Below are positions 48,963 to 64,000 of a stretch of 64,000 nt of DNA, piece after piece. The notes below the pieces were generated by a model. It was not told the origin of the DNA. It searched no databases and saw only the letters and a list, made by a program, of their open reading frames with translations. Source of the stretch: Tubiluchus corallicola (lineage: Eukaryota > Animalia > Priapulida); NCBI GenBank assembly GCA_030141605.1, contig JAQGDQ010000111.1:186001-250000 (forward strand). The letters are read 5' to 3'. The first letter of the stretch is position 1. Each line of letters opens with the position of its first letter. The translations under genes and the position numbers were made by a program.

Positions 48963-50046
48963 ACATTCGAGTACAAAGTGTCCTCATACATCATATATGT
49001 ATATATAATGTACATATATTTGCCTGTGTGTTTCTTGCCTAATCACGTTTTGGCTTCATAGGTGCGTGATTTCCCATTATGCATGTGATCAGGCAAGAAA
49101 CACACAAACAATGACACACACAAGCAAGAAACAAAATTTAGTCATCTGAAGAAACAGTGGATTTATTAGCTAATTAGTTGTCTAATATTTTGTAAGGACT
49201 TATTGTAATTACTTTCGACGGAAACTGACAGGCGCTGCTTTTCTTCGGTCGATGTGACGTCACTGGTGGAAGATTTGGCGTTTAAAATGAGAGCACCCAA
49301 GCTCTCATCGCAACTTTAAATGAGACGTCTATCACTTGTCATACGTTTATTACTAAATTCTTCTAACATTTTCCTCGAATATCTAAATAAGCCTAACTTC
49401 TCAGAAAGCTGTCTTTTCCTTTAAGCTCCAGCAGATTAGCGGGGTCTAGCTTTTTAGGCTTGGCGGTGGGACGCTTGGGAAATTGCAAACTAGCTATTTG
49501 TTTATTTGCAAAACAAACAAAAAGGTAACCAAAACAAAGAACGAATATAAAAAAATTGCCATATAATGTCGTCAAAAGTGTTTTAGCAGTATACATAGTA
49601 TTTATGTATTTATATACTATGTATATAATATTATATAGTATACTAAGTGGGGCTGTACCCATCAAACGCGACAGCCACGCAGCTGGACGTGGGGGGTGAC
49701 AGCTCTTCTAAACAGCGGGTTATTGACTAGTCAGGATGTTTACAAAATCACCACGTTTAGAGTAACGCACAACAGATACAAACATCAAGCAAACAACCAT
49801 TGTACAGCACATCTATGGAAAATTTCCTGTTTTTCTAGCTGATTTGTGTGAATATCGAACCACAACTGTTGCTGAAATTGCACTCCATAATGTTATCAGA
49901 CTAAACAAGTCTCGATAAACATTGGCCTGATGAGGCAATTATTAATAGTGCTCATAAAAATTTAACAGGGTTGGTGGTGTTATTGAAGCTGCAAAAAATC
50001 TATAATTATTACAAATAACGCTATCTTGAAAGAAAAAAACGTGAGT

Positions 50047-50362
<316 letters not shown>

Positions 50363-52002
50363 CATACAACTATCCTTTTCTTGAATTGTCTTTCTCATTA
50401 TTTCTTTTCTTTTGCTTGTTAGATCACTTACCATTATTACCAGGCTTCTATTGGGAAAGGTTGGATTTACACTATTGTACCCTTTTAGGGTTTTGCTGCT
50501 TTACATTTTGCCACCATTGAGCACTTTCGGGTTTTCAATACTTTTGTTTTCCCATGCACTACGTATTCCCACTATTGAAGTATTGGCACTTGTAGGTTGG
50601 CTTGTGGTCACTGACTTGGTGAAAAAATGACGATTTCGGCATCATTTCTCTTTTGTGCACTAATTTACTCATGTTTTGCTAAAATATCATTTTACAGCCA
50701 ACAAAATTAAGTTCACCAGCAAAATTAAAAAAGTTATTCGTCGTTGTTTAATTCATTCATGGAGCATGAAAAATGCTTGCTGTTTAGCATTAGACTTTGA
50801 AGTGCAGGTGAAGATTACTTGATTTTTGTTATACAGTAATTGAAATAGATACAATTTATTAAAATCTTGAGCTTGCGACTTACGAGTCTAAATCCTAGCA
50901 AATTCTAGCTGTCGTTTTTGTTCATCAGCCACTATTTTATTGCTTGCTTTATGTAGTTGATTTGGCGTTTGTTATCTAAATAGGCTAAACAAAACAACCT
51001 TTAGCACTTTGTTTACTTTCTGTCATGGTAAAAAAATAGTGCAAGGTTGCACCCCTGGGTACATGCGCAGCATATACAAGATGGGCATCAGACGGTTATG
51101 CGATAAAATATATACTAGTACTAACAGGTAAAAAAATCCCACAAAATAACAATAAAGAAATGCTTAAGCGATCACTAAAAAACTATTTTTTGCATTATGA
51201 TAATCTGCAGTCACTTCTAAAGCACAGAATTCACTGCAATGAAAATCGCGGAAAAAATATAGATCAGTCAATAAGTTCCGTAAAAAATGGAGGAAGGAAA
51301 AGTTAGAAATGTGGACTTACTGCGTCAGATGCAAAATATTAGATCGTCAGTTTACAGCTTTAAATATTAGTGTAAAACTAACTATACCCCTATTGAAAAA
51401 GTCAGACATACAAAAGAATTATAGAAAAATTTTGAACCCGCTCTCCGTCTTCATTACCATGGCTTCAGTGCCAATAGCGGAAGAGATATTCTTATAAATA
51501 TTTAAGATCGTCTACAATCAAATTTAAATTAATTGGCTTCCTTATTCTTTTGATATGTGCCATTCTGAGTTTGCATTACATTGCTTCAAAAATAATTGTG
51601 TACAGCAAAAATGACAAGTAAAGCCTTGTCATCTGCATACATAGCATAGTTGAATTTGTGTTTCCCCTAAAACAACTGGTATCCTGGCCTTTCTTCAGGG
51701 TCATTGTAGAATGAGCTTGTTGTCAGACTATAGTAGACTGCAAAAAACTCAAAAAAGTAATACTAATAAATTGTCAAAGTATTATGTTCTAAAACACAAA
51801 TTTATCTTTTCCACAATGAAGCTGATTGATTTTTTTTGGTACATTTAGAGAATTTACTATTTTGATTTTTGTTCCTGAGGCATGGTTTAGATCTGAATAT
51901 AACCTTAGTTAACCTAGCTGTTTTTTTCTTTGAGCACGCTTGTGACAAAACATGTATTTAAAAAAATCCTGTATGTATCAATCTGTGTGTTTTTCTTTCC
52001 AG

Positions 52003-52107
52003 CAACAATTGCAAGAACTGTATGATAAGCAAAGCAAGCAACTCATGCAACAGCTTCAGGAGCAGCTACAGTTGAACATGTTGCAACAGAATCATCTAAT
52101 GCAACAA
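52003..52107 (+). CDS. FoxP: FoxP coding exon, Q-rich (phase 0-0)
   Basis: ttttctttccag acceptor, gtaagt donor; QQLQELYDKQSKQLMQQLQEQLQLNMLQQNHLMQQ resembles FoxP [21 protein letters not shown]. Confidence 0.93.
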
Positions 52108-52734
52108 GTAAGTTTCTTCCAATTTCTTTACATTTAGATTGGATAAACATCAACTGGTTTTTACTAATTCTCTGGCATTAGATAGTACACTCATATCTCG
52201 GTTTGCCAGACAAAACCGAGCCAATATTTATCGATACTAAGCTAATACAGTAGATGCCATGGATTAGACTCACGTTAATGTAGAATCAATCGCCTAATTG
52301 CATCAAAAATGTCTAGTACTTGCCGGTCCCGACATACAAGCTACACATGTCATGACACACTGCTTGGTTGGTTACACTGGTGTCATGATGTAAAAACAAG
52401 GTGACAGCCCGTCAACTAGCAGTCAGCTTGAGAAACAATGGACTGTGTGTCTGTAGTATGCGGAACTTTTAGCGGTCCAGATTTTGTCCGATTTTCCTGA
52501 TATCTGTAAAAGTGATATAGAATCTGTGAATTATGCATTGCATTGCAACATTGCAACATTGCTCAGTGGTCAATGCAGTCTGCAATGCAAAAAAGTGCAC
52601 CTGCAAGTGAGCTCAACTGACCAAAGGCCTCTTCTGCTGCCCAACCAAGTGCCCGGTCATTTCATCACTTTTAATTTTTCGTACAAACTTTGTTAAGATT
52701 TCATTGTTCAAAACATAATTTTTTCTTTTCCCAG

Positions 52735-52882
52735 GTGAGTTCGGAGAAGAAAGGTAAGCAGGCTCAACAGCAGCTTCATCAGTTAGTGTTACAGCAGCAA
52801 CAGCTGATACAGCAGATACAGCTGCAACATCGTAACTTTCTTCTTGGTCAGGGAGTGCTTCCTCCGATACCGCTTCCCCAAG
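52735..52882 (+). CDS. FoxP: FoxP coding exon, Q-rich (phase 0-1)
   Basis: ttttcttttcccag acceptor, gtttgt donor; VSSEKKGKQAQQQLHQLVLQQQQLIQQIQLQHRNFLLGQGVLPPIPLPQ(G); phase fits both neighbours. Confidence 0.88.
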
Positions 52883-53929
52883 GTTTGTGTTCAAGTTTTT
52901 CCAAAGCCTTAGTTGGAAAATATACTAGTTTTACAGTGGTGATAGTATTGTTCATACCGAAACAAATCATTAAACTATCTGTTTGTTTTAAAAATTAAGC
53001 AGTTTTTACTCTGGTTAGTATAGAGATAGGGACCTTATGAGACTTTTAATTCACCTATCTTTGGAATTGCTTATAAAATACCTTGTTACCAGTGGTATTT
53101 GTGTAAGCTTTTGAGTGCGTTGGTTTTAGTTTTGCGTTAACGATTTGCATGTGTTTTTCAAGCTACTTTTATGTAATACGTTTATTTCGAGTACACAAAA
53201 ATAAATTATGTAGTTGTGTAAAGTTAATTTGTTTGTATAATACTTGTGATTCGTTTAAAATTATATCTAATTTAAGTATAAAATGTTATTCGTTGTACAT
53301 AGTGTGAAACTGGATTTAAAATATTTGTTATATGAAAATGTAATTTGTTGATCTGAGCCTATATCTATTGTATTTATATAATATTGCATGTAATAATATT
53401 TTAGAAGTAAAGAATTCTAGTATTAAGATTAAGATTATTTATCTCATTTAAAGTTTGACAGTGCATAATGGACATAATAATAATTTTAACAACTAAGCAA
53501 ATTAATAAGTATTCGTTATTGTTTATATTAAAAAAAGGTTGATTATATGGAGAAAGAGTGGCGAATTGCCATACAGTCAGCCGTCCCTATTTACAAATTT
53601 GATACGTTTTGCACATATAACTTGATTAGAGTTATAATACCATTATTTTTTGAAATTCATTCAATTTCAGTGTAATAAAGAAAAAGGTAAAAAAACGTTA
53701 ATGTAAAAGTAAAAACGGGCAAATTAAGCAAAAACAACGTTAAATAATATAACATAATAATAATGTAATATAACATGTGAAAAGCAGCTTTTTGTATAAA
53801 AGCATAATCATAACAAAAAAAATCGTGAAAAGTCCATTAAGTGAGATACTAGTAATAGATAATAATAAACTCACAGTAGATTGTATTAATAAACAAGTTA
53901 ATGAAATTTAAATTACGTAATTTCTTCAG

Positions 53930-54073
53930 GTCTGAGTCCCCAGGATATGCAAACAATATGGAAAGAAGCCATGGCCTCTGGTGCTAGCGAAAATGAAAAA
54001 TACTCAGTAAATGGCCTTCTAGGGAGTAGTGGAACTTCATCCCGGCTGTCAAATGGCATTCCGGAGTTTCCGG
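53930..54073 (+). CDS. FoxP: FoxP coding exon (phase 1-1; alternative in-frame end at 54079)
   Basis: tttcttcag acceptor; (G)LSPQDMQTIWKEAMASGASENEKYSVNGLLGSSGTSSRLSNGIPEFP, matching FoxP GLSPAEIQQLWKE; two phase-1 GT donors at 54074 and 54080. Confidence 0.88.
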
Positions 54074-55104
54074 GTAAAGGTAATAAACGACTTATGCTGT
54101 AGTCATGGTATGAAGAGTTCCCGTGTTCTTACATGCATGCTTCGTTGTTAGCGGGATGATGTGTTCTTTTGCTACTGTTGTATTTTTTGCGTATTATAAG
54201 TTGTTTACTTGTTTTTGAGAGTAGATTCCTTCTCTTGTTTTGGTCAACTTACCTGCCTAAGAGGTATAACTAACAATAGATAATAATATAATTCACGAAG
54301 AGTTGCTTGTTTTAATAATGCAATTGGTTAGATGAAAATTTAATCTCATGAGCCAAATATGGCAGTCACCAGAAGTAATGGACGAAAATTGGAGACTGTC
54401 AAGGAGACAAAGATTGAATTTCTCACCTGTCCGCTTTATACTTTAGCTGCTGATGCACACTTTTAGGTAAAGTTTCACCAATAAATGCAGCTTTGCTCGT
54501 ACTGTTAGCTCATCTCAGAACTTATTTTGTAAATGCATGCAAATATACAAATAAGTGTTTATTTATTTATACATTTATTTATTTGCAAACTTCTGCATCT
54601 GTAAGTGTGCTAGCGTCCTGTACTAGTAAAAAGAATAGGTAGTCTACAACAGGAAAGTCAAAAGTGATATAAGTGTTCACTACCATTTCTCTAGAAATTA
54701 ATATATTCATTACATTTATTAACAGACTAAGCATTTAAGTAATTAAACATTTAGATTATAGTAAAATCTTCCGATAAAATGTTTTTTTCGTGAAGTATTG
54801 ACTGAATAGTAACATAGTTGTGCTACCTTTGTTTGGTATCACCACCGTGGGTCACCATGTTCTATGCAATGAACCTGCTGTTCAGAAAATGCACCAACAA
54901 ACCAGTCCCACATAGAAGACGTTTCAGTTCAAAAAAACAAGCCCGTCGTCCTTCACATTTTAACTTATTCGAAAATTTCGCTCGTCTCCGCAAACATTTT
55001 TTCTGCGTGGCTAAGAGCCATTGTGCTCCGGTATTGACACAAGACCTTACGAATGTATTTTATGAAAATATTGTTGCGACTGATGTGTGTTTGTTGCATT
55101 GCAG

Positions 55105-55210
55105 GTCACAATGACTCTCCAGTTTCCATCACCAATGTACTGTACGGACACGGAGTGTGTCGGTGGCCCGGGTGTGACACAACATGCAAAGACGAGAATG
55201 CCTTTCTAAC
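55105..55210 (+). CDS. FoxP: FoxP coding exon, N-half of C2H2 zinc finger (phase 1-2)
   Basis: ttgcag acceptor, gtaaat donor; (G)HNDSPVSITNVLYGHGVCRWPGCDTTCKDENAFL, the diagnostic FoxP LYGHGVCKWPGC motif. Confidence 0.96.
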
Positions 55211-56107
55211 GTAAATACAAACTAAAACTATTTAATAGAAAACTATTCTGCTGCTACTAATGATATCCTTATGTTGATGCAAAACAACTTATGAAACCTG
55301 TTTTTTTCTATTTGGCCTCTTATCTGTGAAATTCTCACTAGAAAATGTGTTCCAGTAAGTGCAGCGCATAGTTGTAAGCATTCTGTTTTTTGGGAATAGT
55401 GTTCCAATCTTGTTTTTCTGACTGTACCTCACTGTGAGTGTAAAAAAACGGGCATTTGGGTGTTTGTTTAAAATAAACAGGAAGTTGAAACTATTTACAT
55501 ACGTAATTATCGATGAATAAAAATTTTTGGCTTAGTATGCAAACTACTTTCTCGTAATTTGTCAACGACCAACTCATCATTAGCATGTTACTTGATTTTT
55601 TCCAGTTTTGGGAATACTGACTATATTTAGTATTATTGTTTTTAATAGTGCAACAACACTTTGTCCAATTTTGATGTGATAAAATTTGATAGCACTGTTG
55701 TTGTTATTGCTGATTCTTTGTCATCGATACGTCGTTAATTAACGATTAGTACGTAAAAATTTCATAAATCAAAATTGAAGCTTTTAAGCCTGTTGTAAAT
55801 TAGATGCCTGTTCATACTGATGTACTTTGCAATTGTAATTAATAAATTGATAATGCATGCCAAATTTTGTATTTCTTTATGTATCCTGCAACAACATTTT
55901 TGCTATAGTTCATTTTTTGCAAAACAAGTACCGTGTGGAATTCACTTGCAGCATCATGTTTTCTTCCTCTGATCTATGAGGAATGACAACATTAATTATT
56001 TTAATCTTCTCAAATTGAACCTCGTATTGCCGTGAGGTGCGGCATTACACCTATGATTTAACTGCTTTAATTGTTTGTGGTGTACTAAGTTGAAAGTTGT
56101 ATTTTAG

Positions 56108-56195
56108 GCATCTCAATGAGGAGCATCAACTGGATGATCGGAGTACAGCACAAGCCCGTGTTCAAATGCAGGTTGTTAATCAGCTAGATTTGCAG
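56108..56195 (+). CDS. FoxP: FoxP coding exon, C-half of zinc finger and start of leucine zipper (phase 2-0)
   Basis: attttag acceptor, gtaggc donor; (T)[29 protein letters not shown], diagnostic FoxP [16 protein letters not shown] motif. Confidence 0.97.
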
Positions 56196-57505
56196 GTAGG
56201 CAGCACCATCTTTTTTCTCTATGACAAATGTAAACAATTCTGCTTTCATGCTTTTAGAACAGTGACTTTCTATGATGTGTTGATTATGTTGAATTTTACA
56301 ATGGACCACAATTTTTAAACGTTTATTAATTTTAACTGTTTGTGGTATGATAAGTCGACATGTGACCTATTTTTACAGTTTGTATATTTGCTTCGTCATG
56401 TAAGAATCTATAGTTGAAAAATTCATTCTGGGTAATTTCATCTGCTGTTCTGTAAGGGAGGCTGTATCAGCCTGTATGCGGTTCCGAAAATGACTAAGAC
56501 ACCTATGCCCGTTCAGTACCTCATCTAAGAGTATTATTGTGAATAATGAATTAGGTACCGGTCCTGTCACTATGACCTACACTGAATAGACCCTACAAAT
56601 GAGTGCTGAATCTCAGTTTGCAGGAAGTGTGTAAAAACTGCTTATTTTTTAATCGGAAAATTGACCTATTTTTTGCCATCTTATCACAAATTTTGTGAGT
56701 AGTTTCAAATGGTAAACCAGTTTTAAGAAGGTGAATGTAAAAATGATGTAAGAAGAGCAAGAGCATGATCGTTACCAAATTTGGCACTAGATATTACTCC
56801 CTCACCTGTCCTGACCTTTTCAACGAAACATTGTGTATTACCAAGCAGCAGTTTATGAGTTTTGTGATGGGGGGCAATGTGGGAAAATCCACGTAAGTGA
56901 TAACGTAGTCACTTCATAAGTTATTTGTTCTGTGGCTTAGATCTCAATCTAAGATTCTTCAAAAAGTTATCAGAAAATTTACCATTGTCAAAGATACACA
57001 TACATTCCAAATGTCTTGTAAAATGTTTCTTTGTCGTAGCGTGACTTCATTATGTCACATTGATGCTCCAAGTCATTTCTCTTGACCTGGAGTGAACGTC
57101 ACCATTTCGGGTTGGTTGCGCAAATTTTGACTTTCAAGACTTTGACCGAGTGCAGTTATCAGCTGACAGGAAGCAGTTTGTGTTAACAGGAAGTGCCCCT
57201 TCCTAGCACGTAGCCATCACAGATCTGACCATTTAGTTGTAGTGCGGTTGAAAGTGATTCGGACGGGCTGGTTTCGTATTGTTGTGCGGCAAATACCTTT
57301 GCATCATTTCAGACACACAGGTGTGGTGTGCAGGTTGTTGGCATTTGGTTATGGTTCTGACTTTTCCTGTTAGATAACCATTTTATTGATTTTTTGATGA
57401 TGTATGTAGCATCATATTTTTAAGACTTGTAACTTTGTACCATGGTTTTATGGAGCTTTTAACACTTGCATATTTAACTTAATTCGATGCTTGTTTCTTT
57501 TCTAG

Positions 57506-57902
57506 CTGTCTAAAGAGCGAGAGCGATTACAAGCCATGATGCAACACTTACACATGAAACCACATCAGGGCTCTCCGAAATCTGAACCACCTCCCCCTCC
57601 TCCACCTCCTCCTCTCCTTCCCCAGCACTCGTTACCACCCCCAGTCAGCATTGCTAACCTAATGGTCATGGCGAGTGCTAGCAAGCCGCCATTAATTAAT
57701 CCATTGGCGCTGGTGTCCGCTTCATCCCCGGTGCAGCTTCCAACTTCCCCCGTGAGCCTCTCTCAGGCGAGCCCACCTCTTTCTTCTACGCCAAATACCT
57801 CCCTGACACCGGCAACTCCGTGCAATCCGCAAGCTAGCCTGTGTCACAGCGGACCAATCAGACGGAGGGTTTCAGACAAGGGCACTTTACCGATATCAGC
57901 AG
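57506..57902 (+). CDS. FoxP: FoxP coding exon, leucine zipper end, Pro/Ser-rich linker (phase 0-1)
   Basis: ttcttttctag acceptor, gtaagt donor; LSKERERLQAMMQHLHMKP...poly-Pro...NPLALVS...GPIRRRVSDKGTLPISA; 397 nt = 132 codons + 1. Confidence 0.96.
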
Positions 57903-57909
57903 GTAAGTA

Positions 57910-58144
57910 CAGGGTGTTCAGAAAGTCGTTGTGCACATATCTTTATTAACCAACGTTTCAATATAGAATACAGGAAGTAAATATGAATCAGAATTATAAA
58001 CAATGTTCAAAGTGACCCCCATTAATATCAGTACAGGCTTGTATCTTTCTTATTTTGTTTGTACCAAAAGCATTTTGGGATCAAAGGCTGAAATATTAAA
58101 AAAACATGATTAGAAAAGTCCAGAATGACTTTCCGGACACCCCG
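57910..58144. mobile_element. Tc1/mariner-like MITE
   Basis: TA|cagggtgttcagaaagtc ... gactttccggacaccccg|CA: 18-bp imperfect TIRs with TA on the left and a probably mutated TA on the right. Confidence 0.78.
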
Positions 58145-58438
58145 CAAAACTACGGCCTTAGTTTTCTCTTAGGTCCCTGACTTAAGTCCTTCAACTGATG
58201 CAATTCAACTATACTTTAGTGCAAAGCAGAAATCATTCGTGTGCCATAATCAATAGTTACTTTTAGTTTATGCTAAATATCTCTCAAAAATTTGTCAAAA
58301 TTTTCCTCACTTTAGTACTAACTTGTGATGAATAGTTTACAGTCTTGTACAGCCTGTCTTCTTCACACAGTTTTGTTTGAGAACGAAAACTGTGATGCTA
58401 TTGCATGGAATCATCACAGGTTTTTTATGCATTTTCAG

Positions 58439-58515
58439 AAATACAAAGAAACCGAGAGTTTTATAAAAATGCTGATGTTAGACCTCCGTTTACGTATGCA
58501 TCCCTAATTAGACAG
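58439..58515 (+). CDS. FoxP: FoxP coding exon, start of forkhead domain (phase 1-0)
   Basis: attttcag acceptor, gtgagg donor; (E)[25 protein letters not shown]. Confidence 0.97.
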
Positions 58516-59636
58516 GTGAGGATAAGACATGATTTTACAGTTTCTCAATGTTTTGGCTTTTAATCATTACTTTAGTAGAGATTCTAGAGCTTTTTGTAAT
58601 GCGAAATCTTAATTTGTAAGCTCAGTTAGACTGAACTCGCTGCTATAAATTTTGTAAACTAACTTTAACTGAAAAAAAAGAAACTTGGCCGAGTTTATAA
58701 TGTTGATGGTTAAGACAGGGCCTAAACTCAGTTAATTGTCTAAACTAATCTTTTAAGACGAGATACTGAACCAATAGAAGCTGCTTACCATTGCCTGACA
58801 TGTCTGACATGCTGCTTTAATGAAAGAAGTGACTGGGCAGTAAGGCAAATAAAATCATCCCGAAGCAGTATTCCTAGTGGTTACATATCCATTTAGTAAC
58901 TAGGCACAATTTTGTTTAACTTTTGTCACCTAGTGCACACTACTCACTTATGCTCTTTACTGAAATGTGAAAAAAGTGCAATTAGCCTGAGATATATACA
59001 GATTTAGGAAGTTTGGAAAATAATCTTATGCAACTGAACTATGTATCCACAAGGTGCTCGAAAGCTTCCTTATTTTATCTGTGCATTTGTACGTTTTTTG
59101 TGGTCTTCTCTGTCATTAATGCGCTTTGGTTGACCGACTTTATATGAGGTTCGCCATTGTTTTGATTATATAAGGTTTTCTTTAATTTTTCATGAGTTTC
59201 GTCATCACCATGAATACCGTGATGTTCCACAAAAACTGACTACTCATTTTGTAAATTGACCTTGTGTCAGGTGAACAGAGTGCACGAAAGAGCATTTTTG
59301 ACTTCAAACCCACATAAGGAAATAACGCCAGTTTCTAACACTAGAGAGATACACTGGTCAATTCTTTTGTGGGATAACTCTTGCACAGTTTCCTGTGATC
59401 ATTTACAAGTTCATCGTCCTGAAAGGGAAGACGGGTTAACTTGTGTGACAAAACTACATTTACCCAAAAATTGGAAACTGTTTGCACATAGTTCCCTGCC
59501 CCACCCTCTTAGCTTGATTCTGACTGCATGTCACATTATCCATGCAGCTTTCGTAACATCACTTCTGCTTAGTATTCACGCCTTGTCGTCATCTCTTTTT
59601 TCCACTCTCTAAAAACCCTGTTTTCTTATCCTCTCC

Positions 59637-59743
59637 TGTTTACACGCCCTTGTTTATGCGTCCCTGCTCGTTTTGTTTGTGCCCAGACGATTGTTTATCT
59701 TGCATCTACTGGGTTGTTTATCTTTGCCAAGCGCTTTGTTTAC
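59637..59743. promoter_or_regulatory. Co-oriented forkhead motif array
   Basis: TGTTTAC at 59637 and 59737; TGTTTAT at 59651, 59692 and 59715. Confidence 0.5.
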
Positions 59744-60970
59744 CCGCCTTCTTCGGCAAAACGAGCACCTTGTTTGGTTTATGCTTTAATGCACGCTGAT
59801 GGTTTATTCAGTGGATGAGAGAGAAATTATCTCGATGGGTCGGCAGACGGACGCATTGTCCCCGAGTTGAATTCATTCACTCAGCTGCCGGCTGAATTAA
59901 AATTATATTTTATTTACTTAGCGGCCGTATGTGGAAGTGGGCAAAACATGTCCGCTGTTTCTTCATACTTGTTTGTCGTGCGCCGTCTTTCATTTCTCGC
60001 TGAAAATAATCAATTGCTAACACGTTTACGCTCTGTAAATGGACATCTTTCACGGTAATGAACTACTTCCATATCGTAACTTTTGCGAGCACCCTTTTCA
60101 TACATTCTTCTCCCATTAATTGCACAGTTGCGTATTACTTGTTGTTAATTGTTAGAAAAGTCTGTTTCGAATGAGTTTGTTGCTGAACTGTAATGGCATC
60201 ATTTCTTTACGACCGCTTATGAGTGAGTTCTCTCGTGTGTTCTTTTTGGAACTTGTAACCCACATCTCTAGTTGTTCTTGTTCTTGATTTCCCATTGAAA
60301 ATCACGTTGATTCTTAGCATGGGTAATTTACTCATTTTGCAGTACTTGTGTTTTCAAATTCAACATTCTGGCCATACTTTTCAGGTTAAAAGTCGACGTT
60401 ATATTTTCATTTGTAAGATTGAAAAGTCATAATCACGTCATTGCTTCATTAAGGACCGAAGTGAATACTGTTTAGAGTTTTTATTAATGCATTTTTAGCA
60501 AAAATTTGTTTTATGTTTCCTAAAATGACTCTTTGGTAAGGAAGCTGTAAACAAAAAGTCTATCTAAGATAATATGTATAGCAAACTGGTGTTGTGTAAT
60601 TAAATATTATTATAATTTTCGAGTTTATGATATTGAAGGGGTCATAACTTCCAGTACTATTTGTTTCTAGTCAATGGATGGAGCCACAGGATTTCTATAG
60701 TATGCTTTTTGTCTTAATCCAGAAATTCTGATGTATCGTCACCTACCATCATGAATTGTGTATTATCAAGTTTGTGTAGGCTTTATCAACTACATGACAC
60801 TATAACGTTATTGTATTTGTACCTTTCTGGCGGCTTTCTGTGTAATATTTAAATTTAAATTTTTTATTGCTTGTTTGTTAGAAGTGGCTTGGCACTGCTT
60901 TGCTGTTTTTGGTTTTTGCCTTCCTTTTTTATCTAATTGACAATTTCACCACAAGGTGTCTCTTTTTCAG

Positions 60971-61072
60971 GCGATCATTGAAGCGCCGAATAAAGAACTC
61001 ACCCTAAACGACATTTACAACTGGTTTCAATCCAACTTTCTTTACTTCCGGAAAAACGTGGCCGCCTGGAAG
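60971..61072 (+). CDS. FoxP: FoxP forkhead middle exon, copy A (putative mutually exclusive; phase 0-0)
   Basis: tctttttcag acceptor, gtactg donor; 102 nt, [34 protein letters not shown]. Confidence 0.93.
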
Positions 61073-61133
61073 GTACTGCACTTTTGTTTTTGTTCTATTT
61101 AATGGTGTTTTTTACGACATTGTGTATATGTAG

Positions 61134-61235
61134 GCTATTATTGAAGCTCCCTTCTATCAGTTGACACTGAGTGAAATTTATCAATGGTTTATGAGGAATT
61201 TTGCATACTTTCGCCAAAATACTCACACTTGGAAG
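61134..61235 (+). CDS. FoxP: FoxP forkhead middle exon, copy B (putative mutually exclusive; phase 0-0)
   Basis: tgtag acceptor, gtacta donor; 102 nt, [34 protein letters not shown]; same length and phase as copy A. Confidence 0.92.
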
Positions 61236-62480
61236 GTACTAACTTTTGTTTATATTATGTGAATTTAACAGTGGAGTTTCGTTCAGTAAAAGTACAGGCA
61301 AATAGGAAACATAGATGTACAGCTGTAGTTCATGTAGAAGACTAAGAGCAGTACCTGTTTAGTAGAAATATTAGTTTCTAACAGTAGAGTCTGTTTTATT
61401 TTATGCAAAATAACCTTCTGTATGTGTGCAGCTTAAAACTGTATAATTAAATTTTCTTACACTTGTGTAATAACAGTAAATTGTTGTTGGCAATTTTGGC
61501 TACAAAAAAGTTTTTCAGTCATACAATGATGTTTCATTCTCGACTTAAATCACTTAGTAAATTTTCTACATGTTTTATGGACCGAGACATTGAGAATAAT
61601 GTGCATTTATTTGTAGGGTACTTTTTAACCCATGCGTGTGTTGCCTTGGCTGTGCAAGTAGTTATTTTTATTAGCCACCTGATGGCGGCACAGAGAAGTG
61701 TATTAGAAATGAGACCATTCCTTCCCTCTTCCTCTATAATGCCATATCTTCTTTTAAAAACATTGTAAAATGAATTTATCCACACTGCAAGTTAGTATTA
61801 TATTTGTCAAAATGCTGATATTCGGCTGCTTTTTGTTGCAGTTTTAACTTATTTCACGTAATTATTTTGTTTAATTAACAGTTGAATGAAGTCATGTTCA
61901 TTTCTGCCACAAGTTTCAAATCTCCATTTTGCTGAATGATAACATCGTCCAGTAAAATACTGATAGAACGCTGTTTACAAAATGTTGCAATAAGTGGGAA
62001 TGTCCACGATTCTCTAAGAAGCTTTAACTTAGTAGGGAGGCATAAGAAGAAATTTTTTGGTAAAAGAGGATAGGATAGTGATGACCCGCAAAGGAGGGAA
62101 TCTTTCTAAATAGGCAGAGTTGATATGTCTGCTTTATCTTACAGCTGTGTTATTTTTTGTTTGTTTTGCAAGAATATTTTTTGCCGGGAAGTTTCAGTCC
62201 AGCGAAATATTGTACATGCAATTTTTTGTTGAGTTGTACTTTAAATTTAAAAATTCTTGTTTTGCCTTGTGTGAAGAAATATTTACAAAGTTTTTTTAAG
62301 TAAAATTGATTTTTATTTGCTGCTTCTAATATGCTCGAACTTCAACAGAAAACTTGTGCATGAAACCCCATGCTATAGCTGCTTATTGTAGTGTTGTTTT
62401 TGTCCAGAATAGCTGTTGCTTGGCTGCCATTGGCTTCTTATAGCTTTGCTATTTGCTAATATTTGTTTCTCATCCCGTAG

Positions 62481-62605
62481 AATGCTGTGCGGCACAACCT
62501 AAGCCTTCATAAGTGTTTTATGCGTGTGGAGAATGTTAAAGGAGCGGTGTGGACGGTCGACGAGATCGAATTCTACAAACGACGGCCTCAGAGGATGTCT
62601 AGCGG
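62481..62605 (+). CDS. FoxP: FoxP forkhead recognition-helix exon, canonical type (copy C; phase 0-2)
   Basis: tttctcatcccgtag acceptor, gtaggt donor; [41 protein letters not shown](G). Confidence 0.96.
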
Positions 62606-62614
62606 GTAGGTGTC

Positions 62615-62702
62615 GTCAGCGTACGTTGACCCCGGCATGTCCTCGAACTTCGGCGGTCGGCCGCCTGCCTTACCGTCGGTTCGGGCAACTTGCCGGAGAT
62701 CA
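62615..62702 (+). other. Intronic RNA stem-loop(s) between exons C and D
   Basis: ccggca (62632-37) pairs with tgccgg (62691-96); cc(t)cgaac with gttcggg; cggcggt with accgtcg (one G-U); ggc with gcc; a small near-palindrome gtcagcgtacgttgac (62615-30) lies just upstream. GC-rich island in AT-rich introns. Confidence 0.75.
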
Positions 62703-62747
62703 TTTCTTCTTTCTAACTGTTTGTCTTTTTTGTTTTTCGTCTCTCAG

Positions 62748-62893
62748 AACGCCATACGTACCAACTTGTCGCTGCATAAATGTTTTGTAAGAATCGAGGA
62801 CGAATTTGGATCCTTCTGGATGGTCGATGACGACGAATTTGCATTGCGGCGCCATCTAACACGTGGCCGACCGCGCAAATACATCGATGTACA
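62748..62893 (+). CDS. FoxP: FoxP forkhead recognition-helix exon, alternative type (copy D, FOXP1 exon-18b-like; phase 0-2, or stop at 62895-62897 if unspliced)
   Basis: ttctaac branch site, long pyrimidine tract, ctctcag acceptor; [48 protein letters not shown](Q); ca|gtaaga donor in the same phase as copy C. Confidence 0.94.
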
Positions 62894-64000
62894 GTAAGAG
62901 TACCATTCAAAAATTTAGACGTGGAAAATTCACAAGTGGAAATCTTCACCACATATTAGTTATCAGTCTACAGACTGTTCTTTTAATGCATTTCCTTGTC
63001 GACCAGAGCAAAATAAGTAATGTGTCTGAAGTTGAGAAAGATCCAGAATTCCAAATTCGCGATCTTGCAAGATATTTGCGACTGACTCATTATTTTGTTG
63101 TTATTTATTTTCTTAGTTGTTGTGTTATAAATTTTCTTCTGGGTGTGGTGAAGGTTTCTGTGCTTGCTTATAAGTGTATTCAGCATGTTGTGTGTAACAA
63201 ATTCTAATTAAATGGATCATGCATGGAGCGAGATACTGTTTCACATACCGAGTTGAATCGATAATAATAATTGGGTCCATCGTACATCTATTAAAGGCAT
63301 GCAGTGAAGTAGTTGAATTGCTTTTTGTGGATATGTTTTGTTGTAACTCAGTTTTATGTGTAGATTAAATAAAATATCTGGCATAGTTTGTACGTGCCAG
63401 GCAGATGAGCATGTTTATTATTACATGTAAGTGCGACTTCGCTAATGTACAATGGACTGTATTTTGTTGGTAGTAGATGTTTGTTCTGCAAAATTTTATA
63501 AATGATAAATATTGTCAATAAATTCTAATCTAATCTGATGTATAACAGGTATAGATCATTCTAGCATCCTGCAGTATTTCGGCTATTGTTTAGTGTGTTT
63601 ATCAATTATTGTTCTAGATCAGTGTACTTAACCTATACGTGCCGGCATCCCCATGGGCGCGAGATATTGTTTTTGAGGGTGTGAGAATTTTCTTAAAGAC
63701 AGCATTTTCGTTTTGCTCTTCGTCATTTAGTGTTTCATAGTTTTTTTTTGTTTCAAGTTGTCAAGTCGTTGAATTTCTTTATACTTTGACTCTACATTCT
63801 TACAATCTTCATCTTTGTCCTTGTTTGGTTATGCATCAGTTTTGGCATAACCTTCTATGCAGATATACGTAGACGTGTGAAAGGTGATTATAAGTCTTCA
63901 GCACTGGAGGTGCAGTATGCAATTTAAAATTTCAGTGGGTGCCTGCATAAAAAATGTTAAGCTTCACTGTTCTAGATTATGTACACTTTTTGCTTTCTGA

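Follow-up and report, generated by a model that had tools for sequence, protein, structure and literature searches.

Two tandem exon pairs in the forkhead domain of a priapulid FoxP gene and their possible alternative use

The FoxP forkhead domain is almost invariant across animals. Its last exon comes as an alternative pair in bilaterians, the second member of which replaces His554 with Thr (Santos et al., PMC3002244; this and the other papers cited by PMC number were available as partial text, and statements about them refer to those parts). The pair encodes the Drosophila isoforms DmFoxP-A and DmFoxP-B and corresponds to exons 18 and 18b of human FOXP1, where the product of exon 18b, FOXP1-ES, has a shifted binding motif (PMC11701043). 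The pair also encodes the residues that are named as contacting bases (PMC3002244). According to the available text of the same paper, alternative splicing affects only the second part of the domain, a further pair in the first part is not described, and both fly isoforms share all residues involved in domain swapping. The preceding exon, here called the middle forkhead exon, encodes the hinge for the swap and, of the eight aromatic residues in the swap interface, six (PMC8508939). Drosophila has a single middle exon with a weak donor after the ...WK codons, and retention of the intron that follows truncates the domain in the isoform FoxP-iIR (PMC7776582).

Two other groups of genes offer parallels for the control of duplicated exons. 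Exons 4a and 4b of OGDH are tandem duplicates with less than 50 nt between 5' splice site and branch point, which lies below a steric threshold of approximately 50 nt derived from vertebrate work (PMC7969005). In Dscam1, srp and ATE1, competing RNA pairing involves intron elements that are complementary to splice-relevant sequence near the duplicated exons, and the partners, as far as the sources at hand describe them, are intronic selectors.

Here we describe a FoxP gene of the priapulid Tubiluchus corallicola, located in a stretch of 64,000 nucleotides (contig JAQGDQ010000111.1, positions 186,001 to 250,000), hereafter the window. In addition to the known pair of last exons, the gene contains a tandem duplication of the middle exon. 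We did not find a second alternative pair in the openly accessible literature on FoxP exon duplication and splicing, surveyed by titles and the opening lines of abstracts and in the accessible text of PMC11998571 and PMC8918179. Within that literature, the duplication of the middle exon thus appears to be undescribed.

Exon organisation of the Tubiluchus gene

The window contains the 3' part of one FoxP gene on the forward strand, and the forkhead exons, named K, A, B, C and D, occupy positions 58439-62897. The FOXP-CC domain (PF16159), with the zinc finger and the leucine zipper, is spread over three exons 5' of the forkhead domain. Several of the joints listed here come from an RNA-like assembly, X2, which is considered below.

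55105-55210, forward strand: FoxP zinc-finger exon (FOXP-CC positions 1-23, Pfam PF16159; joint 55210-56108 in X2)
56108-56195, forward strand: leucine-zipper exon 1 (FOXP-CC positions 25-53; Pfam match and X2 joint)
57506-57902, forward strand: leucine-zipper exon 2 and linker (Pfam FOXP-CC; joined to K in X2)
58439-58515, forward strand: constant exon K, start of forkhead helix 1 (phase 1-0; K-A joint in X2)
60971-61072, forward strand: exon A, first copy of the middle forkhead exon (102 nt, AG..GT, phase 0-0; acceptor used in X2)
61073-61133, forward strand: 61-nt intron between A and B, with candidate branch adenines
61134-61235, forward strand: exon B, second copy of the middle forkhead exon (102 nt, AG..GT, phase 0-0; donor used in X2)
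62481-62605, forward strand: exon C, canonical recognition-helix exon of the isoform A or exon 18 type (phase 0-2; B-C joint in X2)
62632-62696, forward strand: GC-rich hairpin within the intron of 142 nt that separates C from D (z -2.97, 1/200 shuffles, with bounds picked after the fold was seen)
62748-62897, forward strand: exon D, alternative recognition-helix exon of the isoform B or exon 18b type (phase 0-2 with a donor at 62893, or a stop at 62895-62897)

A sequence-only reading of the window had proposed a two-by-two layout, with A and B in phase 0-0 and C and D in phase 0-2, in which all four paths rebuild a full forkhead domain. The exact exons agree with this layout. The paths K-A-C, K-A-D, K-B-C and K-B-D contain no stop, span positions 1-84/85 of the 85-column FoxP domain profile and score 156-174 bits. 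The path K-A-B-C is likewise in frame, while the combination of C plus D is not. In the Pfam Forkhead model, A and B each cover positions 14-48, and C and D cover positions 49-82, although D as a fragment scores 23.5 bits and falls below the cut-off of 27 bits. The best PDB sequence matches of A, B and D are FOXP1-4, which indicates membership of the FoxP family. In a tree based on 141 columns, three of them doubled, the gene is placed without support among the protostomes, with a spider and a tick as the nearest sequences (89% identity), and it has no arthropod linker segment. Scanning the entire window in six frames and searching positions 50001-64000 with an HMM revealed neither a third A/B-like copy nor a hidden canonical middle exon. 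A contig from a DNA run (60716-61192) covers exon A, the intron between the copies and the beginning of B, and because it bridges the two copies the pair appears to be genomic and not an assembly duplication, if the run is not the window's own source, which is possible.

Exons C and D are the already known bilaterian pair (Drosophila isoforms A and B, FOXP1 exons 18 and 18b), a precedent that the sequence-only reading did not mention. Its proposal that the choice between C and D changes base-reading residues is in line with the published systems: D replaces His554 with a Thr, the residue also found there in the known isoform (PMC3002244), and the motif shift of FOXP1-ES is described in the accessible part of PMC11701043. 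D also contains an RGRPRKY tail and is 87% identical to a D-type exon in Tubulanus. Its putative phase-2 donor is weak. The D-type exon ends in a stop in two related loci (L022 and L028) while the Tubulanus protein runs on past D, so the end of D is ambiguous, and in Tubiluchus either a stop or onward splicing is possible. The segment 62590-62900, in which the C-D hairpin lies, does not fold more stably than its shuffles.

The two middle exons are equal in length and phase, each with its own splice sites, but they are identical at only 60/102 nucleotides and 21/34 residues. Synonymous sites are saturated (pS 0.98, pN 0.28). All 12 columns that are invariant among 68 distinct homologous exons are kept in both A and B, in a reference set that was chosen by an A+B profile and is biased towards these two exons. 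Both copies differ from the homologue consensus at 10/34 positions, compared with 0/25 in K and 3/37 in C. The 68 exons lack L539, V545 and A547 (Thr547 to Ala), which are found in A, as well as F522, Y523, Q543 and H546, which are found in B; the numbering is that of FOXP2, with Ala539 and Asn550 as anchors (PMC3002244). Judged by these substitution patterns, A and B look like an old coding duplicate with both copies under purifying selection. Conservation of the whole module in each copy fits alternative use better than half-use of each copy in tandem.

The middle exon encodes helix 2, the hinge and the start of helix 3. The hinge position 539 is occupied by Leu in A and by Ala in B, neither of which is a proline, and the swap aromatics W33, F34, F38, Y40, F41 and W48 are kept in both. 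The earlier suggestion that A/B alters a dimerisation or hinge surface stands insofar as the pair encodes the swap hinge with a Leu/Ala difference; the functional part of it, by analogy with the literature, is that this difference may tune the monomer versus the swapped-dimer state. The division of labour between C/D in base reading and A/B in the hinge is a reasonable one.

A single FoxP gene carries two tandem exon pairs in its forkhead domain, and we consider it probable that A and B are spliced one copy at a time, which would change the swap hinge and the entry of helix 3. Such an arrangement could likely yield up to four domain versions from one gene, in which A/B would set the balance between monomer and swapped dimer and C/D would alter base reading.

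The A-B intron and candidate RNA pairing

The A-B intron is the shortest of seven measured introns, the next being 142 nt. Motif prediction places branch-like adenines 30 and 42 nt away from the donor of A. Exclusion would follow if a branch point at this distance is too near the donor of A for both parts of the spliceosome to bind. The locus shares tandem duplicate exons with OGDH 4a/4b, and its candidate branch points would likewise lie less than 50 nt from the donor, but the branch point is predicted, and the threshold is of vertebrate origin and may differ in Tubiluchus. Many related loci splice introns of 48-70 nt normally, so that the steric rule may not apply to this gene, and exclusion by the 61-nt intron is suggestive only.

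Among 16 splice-site probes, intron complements exceed those of shuffled sequences for two, the donors of K and A. Together with a short complement of B, they give three candidate elements:

59624-59642, forward strand: candidate intron element complementary to the 3' end and donor of K (58509-58527); 2/300 shuffles as good
60819-60835, forward strand: intron element predicted to pair over the 3' end and donor of A (61060-61076); 4/300, 0/100 and 0/60 shuffles
61402-61411, forward strand: candidate 10-nt complement of the hinge codons of B (61198-61207), matching a motif conserved in pancrustacean loci

The element at 60819-60835 is specific to A, with a pairing energy of -30.5 kcal compared with -16.6 kcal for B, and its helix with A dominates the local fold with a core pair probability of approximately 1. 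If formed, this helix would hide the donor of A and bias the choice between the copies. The element at 61402-61411 is located 167 nt downstream of B, is the sole occurrence on the forward strand in the 64 kb, and could loop out the donor of B. Its helix is weak (-13.6 kcal; 54/3000 intron shuffles, 1.8%) and missing from the lowest-energy fold, and another 10-nt sequence complementary to B is present elsewhere. The hinge codons of B are identical to those of copy 1 in the multi-copy related loci described below. If the element is homologous to the motif in the related loci, its helix contains one compensatory change, from C-G to A-U. The two elements may thus form two hairpins, each of which would hide the donor of one exon.

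Donor pairing is not a general feature of FoxP genes, since an ungapped scan found 7/78 donors at 3/100 or better, where about three are expected. A candidate duplex at the acceptor of A was lost in a stricter scan (82/300 shuffles), and the segments 60900-61320 and 61134-61450 are no more stable than their shuffles. The arrangement resembles Dscam1, srp and ATE1 in the use of intron elements near duplicated exons. It differs from those systems, as described in the parts available, in that the partners are placed in exons, namely the 3' end with the donor and the hinge codons, and not in intronic selectors.

Splice joints in an RNA-like assembly

X2 consists of contigs only, from one small sample, and these derive from a 31-mer graph after simplification (Logan preprint). 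It is approximately 4% divergent from the window, from another population or species, and its RNA nature is a guess that the GT-AG joints support, since neither of the two matching runs listed is recorded as RNA. Besides the joints 55210-56108, zipper to K, K-A and B-C, the contigs join C to an exon outside 52000-64000, and D is skipped. The acceptor of A and the donor of B are thus used at the predicted sites. No single contig crosses the whole domain, and the A-B joint is absent from the contigs. X2 has no contig on D, on the 5' half of B or on the A-B intron, but short contigs were dropped and records filtered, so that these gaps carry no weight.

The K-A contig is unbroken and ends exactly at 61072 (depth 80.6), and the B-C contig is also unbroken (depth 104.7). 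Because the K-A contig is unbroken, K-B must be absent or pruned, and for the same reason A-C is absent or pruned in view of the B-C contig. In simulations with an unpruned 31-mer graph, three of ten isoform sets reproduce both contigs. In these sets, A and B occur in the same transcript, either spliced or with the intron retained, together with A-D. None of the sets with K-B matches, whether plain exclusion, the full two-by-two set, the coupled combination of AD and BC, or exclusion with a retained intron; A-B-C in tandem alone is compatible if further breaks are assumed. The breaks in X2 are better explained by co-inclusion of A and B or by a retained intron than by free exclusion, within the limits set by pruned minor junctions, polymorphism and the single small sample. 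The earlier expectation of four isoforms from independent choices is therefore not borne out by X2, which yields only K-A and B-C with breaks unlike those of simple exclusion, and the free two-by-two reading may be wrong for this sample. A further point against one-copy splicing is that none of the loci or proteins examined supplied a transcript in which a divergent copy stands between K and C.

It is unlikely, though with some chance of being right, that A is the working exon and that the donor of B serves mainly in an unproductive K-A-intron-B-C transcript, with coding B rare or tissue-restricted. Retention of the A-B intron stops the frame at residue 68, and in combination with K-A-D it reproduces both contigs. 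The donors of A and B, which follow ...WK codons as the fly donor does, pair weakly with U1, the fly isoform arises at the homologous donor (PMC7776582, in the part available), where Tubiluchus has two middle exons instead of one, and a related transcript (L024) joins K to copy 1 and retains the later introns. This explanation leaves the amino-acid conservation of B unaccounted for, and such retention is compatible with one-copy splicing as a by-product.

Co-inclusion of both exons as K-A-B-C, perhaps beside K-A-D, would insert a repeat of 34 residues at the swap hinge and appears improbable. The 61-nt intron is of a size spliced in many invertebrate loci, the in-frame path fits both contigs in the graph simulation, and the hinge is the exit point of the chain from the domain in swapped dimers (PMC8508939, as far as accessible). 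However, every core residue is kept along A and B despite saturated synonymous sites, and the three to four copies in related loci are hard to accommodate in one chain. A spliced two-copy form was found in 0/196 fetched proteins that contain the middle-exon segment, and the A-B joint was not seen. Word-based protein searches with A and B gave no match, nor did a degenerate B pattern against metagenomes, and both are weak blanks. Isoform clusters from eight named groups contain one middle exon each, but the known D form is also missing from them, which makes them uninformative.

Coupled exclusion with only two domains, for example A-D and B-C, is more doubtful still. The unbroken B-C contig implies that A-C is absent or pruned, and the fork at the end of A fits A-D, but the coupling requires a K-B joint, and the K-A contig would then be broken, with one small assembly as the source for either point. 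A dead pseudo-exon or an assembly artefact, to which the absence of a canonical copy might point, is largely refuted and has next to no probability, given the DNA contig that bridges A and B, the 60/102 identity, the open frames with intact splice sites, a pN far below pS, and RNA joints that touch both copies.

Recurrence in related loci and significance

A metagenome scan retained 80 of 187 loci, many of them redundant, and nine of the 80 contain 2-4 tandem copies of the middle exon with intact AG/GT borders. Among loci with both K and C and an intron after the middle exon, the multi-copy fraction is 4/32. The layout is two-by-two in L039 and four-by-two in L019. A linker segment is common to L019, L020, L024, L031, L038, L039, Oratosquilla and Armadillidium, and because it is shared with the latter two, the multi-copy loci are classified as pancrustacean-type; a copepod origin is a guess. 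A further candidate for an alternative exon, P0143, was rejected as part of a single-copy paralogue.

The extra copies in the related loci form one supported group (99/98) and contain Leu, Gly, Lys or Met at the hinge. Selection on such a copy is indicated by the comparison of L025 with L038 (dS 0.70, dN 0). One extra copy resembles A in its Leu at the hinge and in the residues D529 and N522. The order of the copies is reversed, with the canonical copy first in the related loci and A first in Tubiluchus. AU tests on 34 columns give p values of 0.32 for A+B, 0.63 for A plus the extra copies and 0.32 for B plus the extra copies, and do not decide between these groupings.

The intron motif GTATGCAAAAG is present in eight of the nine multi-copy loci and is complementary to the hinge codons of copy 1. 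Across all six distinct loci these codons are invariant, in contrast to most of the other codons; the 9-mer core of the motif is also present at six unrelated positions within the loci. Upstream pairing with the 3' end of the divergent copy is at 2/60 shuffles or better in 7/10 copies tested, one partner being a GT repeat, and three copies show nothing.

The sequence-only reading had also suggested that splicing substitutes for the paralogue diversity of vertebrates. This is weakened because one contig contains a further FoxP gene (L007) in addition to the two-copy one (L039). The proposed ten dimer types from four monomers are a matter of arithmetic and would require co-expression within a single cell.

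A wider reading, which we put forward tentatively and regard as somewhat doubtful, is that protostomes in several lineages possess an overlooked second forkhead exon cluster with two to four copies of the hinge exon, in which two RNA duplexes between exon and intron, common to these lineages, act as the switch and the choice combines freely with the recognition-helix switch. If so, one gene would set DNA specificity and swap state separately, with four domains in Tubiluchus and up to eight in L019.

If just one or two forms are made, the locus would still be of moderate interest, as a duplicated exon that appears not to have been described. A DNA-binding domain with two switches would extend the known switch of the FOXP1-ES type, and repeated exon multiplication with conserved pairing elements would offer a compact case for the origin of exon-choice control. 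Natural, selected variants that differ at the hinge provide ready pairs for testing whether domain swapping matters in vivo.

Intron motif and copies of the middle exon

The motif GTATGCAAAAG is kept in the intron 3' of copy 1 of the middle forkhead exon in eight metagenome FoxP loci (L019, L020, L025, L027, L031, L037, L038, and L039), and the codons for the domain-swap hinge in copy 1 are its complement in each of them. As judged from the sequences of L019, L025, and L038, the helix between GTATGCAAAAG and the hinge codons would intersect the one by which the extra copy is hidden, and such predicted crossing helices are like competing structures. Alternatively, the helix between the motif and the hinge could serve as an editing duplex.

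The pancrustacean-type FoxP locus L019:2033-4566 contains four copies of the middle exon in addition to C and D, the recognition-helix pair, a layout that would allow up to eight domains. The 3' end of each extra copy is complementary to an element in the upstream intron of the same copy, and these predicted pairings gave shuffle counts of 2/60, 1/60, and 0/60. A second arrangement, which is without the motif, is found in L024:1828-2654 and the protein P0006, with three copies in the order divergent, near-canonical, and divergent. Splicing in L024 is complete as far as copy 1, and the introns after copy 1 are still retained.

FoxP paralogues

A FoxP paralogue (L029:122-660 and L008:1733-2000) has its own, separate duplicate of the C-type exon, and its middle exon is joined to C-type copy 1 in one transcript and to copy 2 in another. 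L007 and L039 are located on one 103-kb contig. The pair of FoxP genes on it is separated by about 60 kb; one gene has only one middle exon, and the other has two.

FoxP exons and the K-A intron in the window

Further glutamine-rich FoxP exons lie within about 51990-54060:

near 52000-52113, glutamine-rich FoxP exon
near 52735-52885, glutamine-rich FoxP exon
near 53920-54060, glutamine-rich FoxP exon

No further clear protein-coding ORF was evident beyond the FoxP exons in the ORF list of the window, which consists mostly of microsatellites. A 1237-nt DNA-run contig with three differences (58788-60024), the longest among those listed in 52000-64000, is placed inside the K-A intron and covers the candidate complement of the K donor, a weak hint of constraint.

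Residue 547 of exon A

Exon A codes for alanine at residue 547 (61064-61066), where 66 of 68 homologues have threonine, and this codon falls within the duplex predicted at the exon. A threonine codon here would give an A-C mismatch in the predicted duplex, the type of mismatch that is edited by ADAR, and we therefore speculate that the genome may have hard-coded the once-edited state as Ala547.
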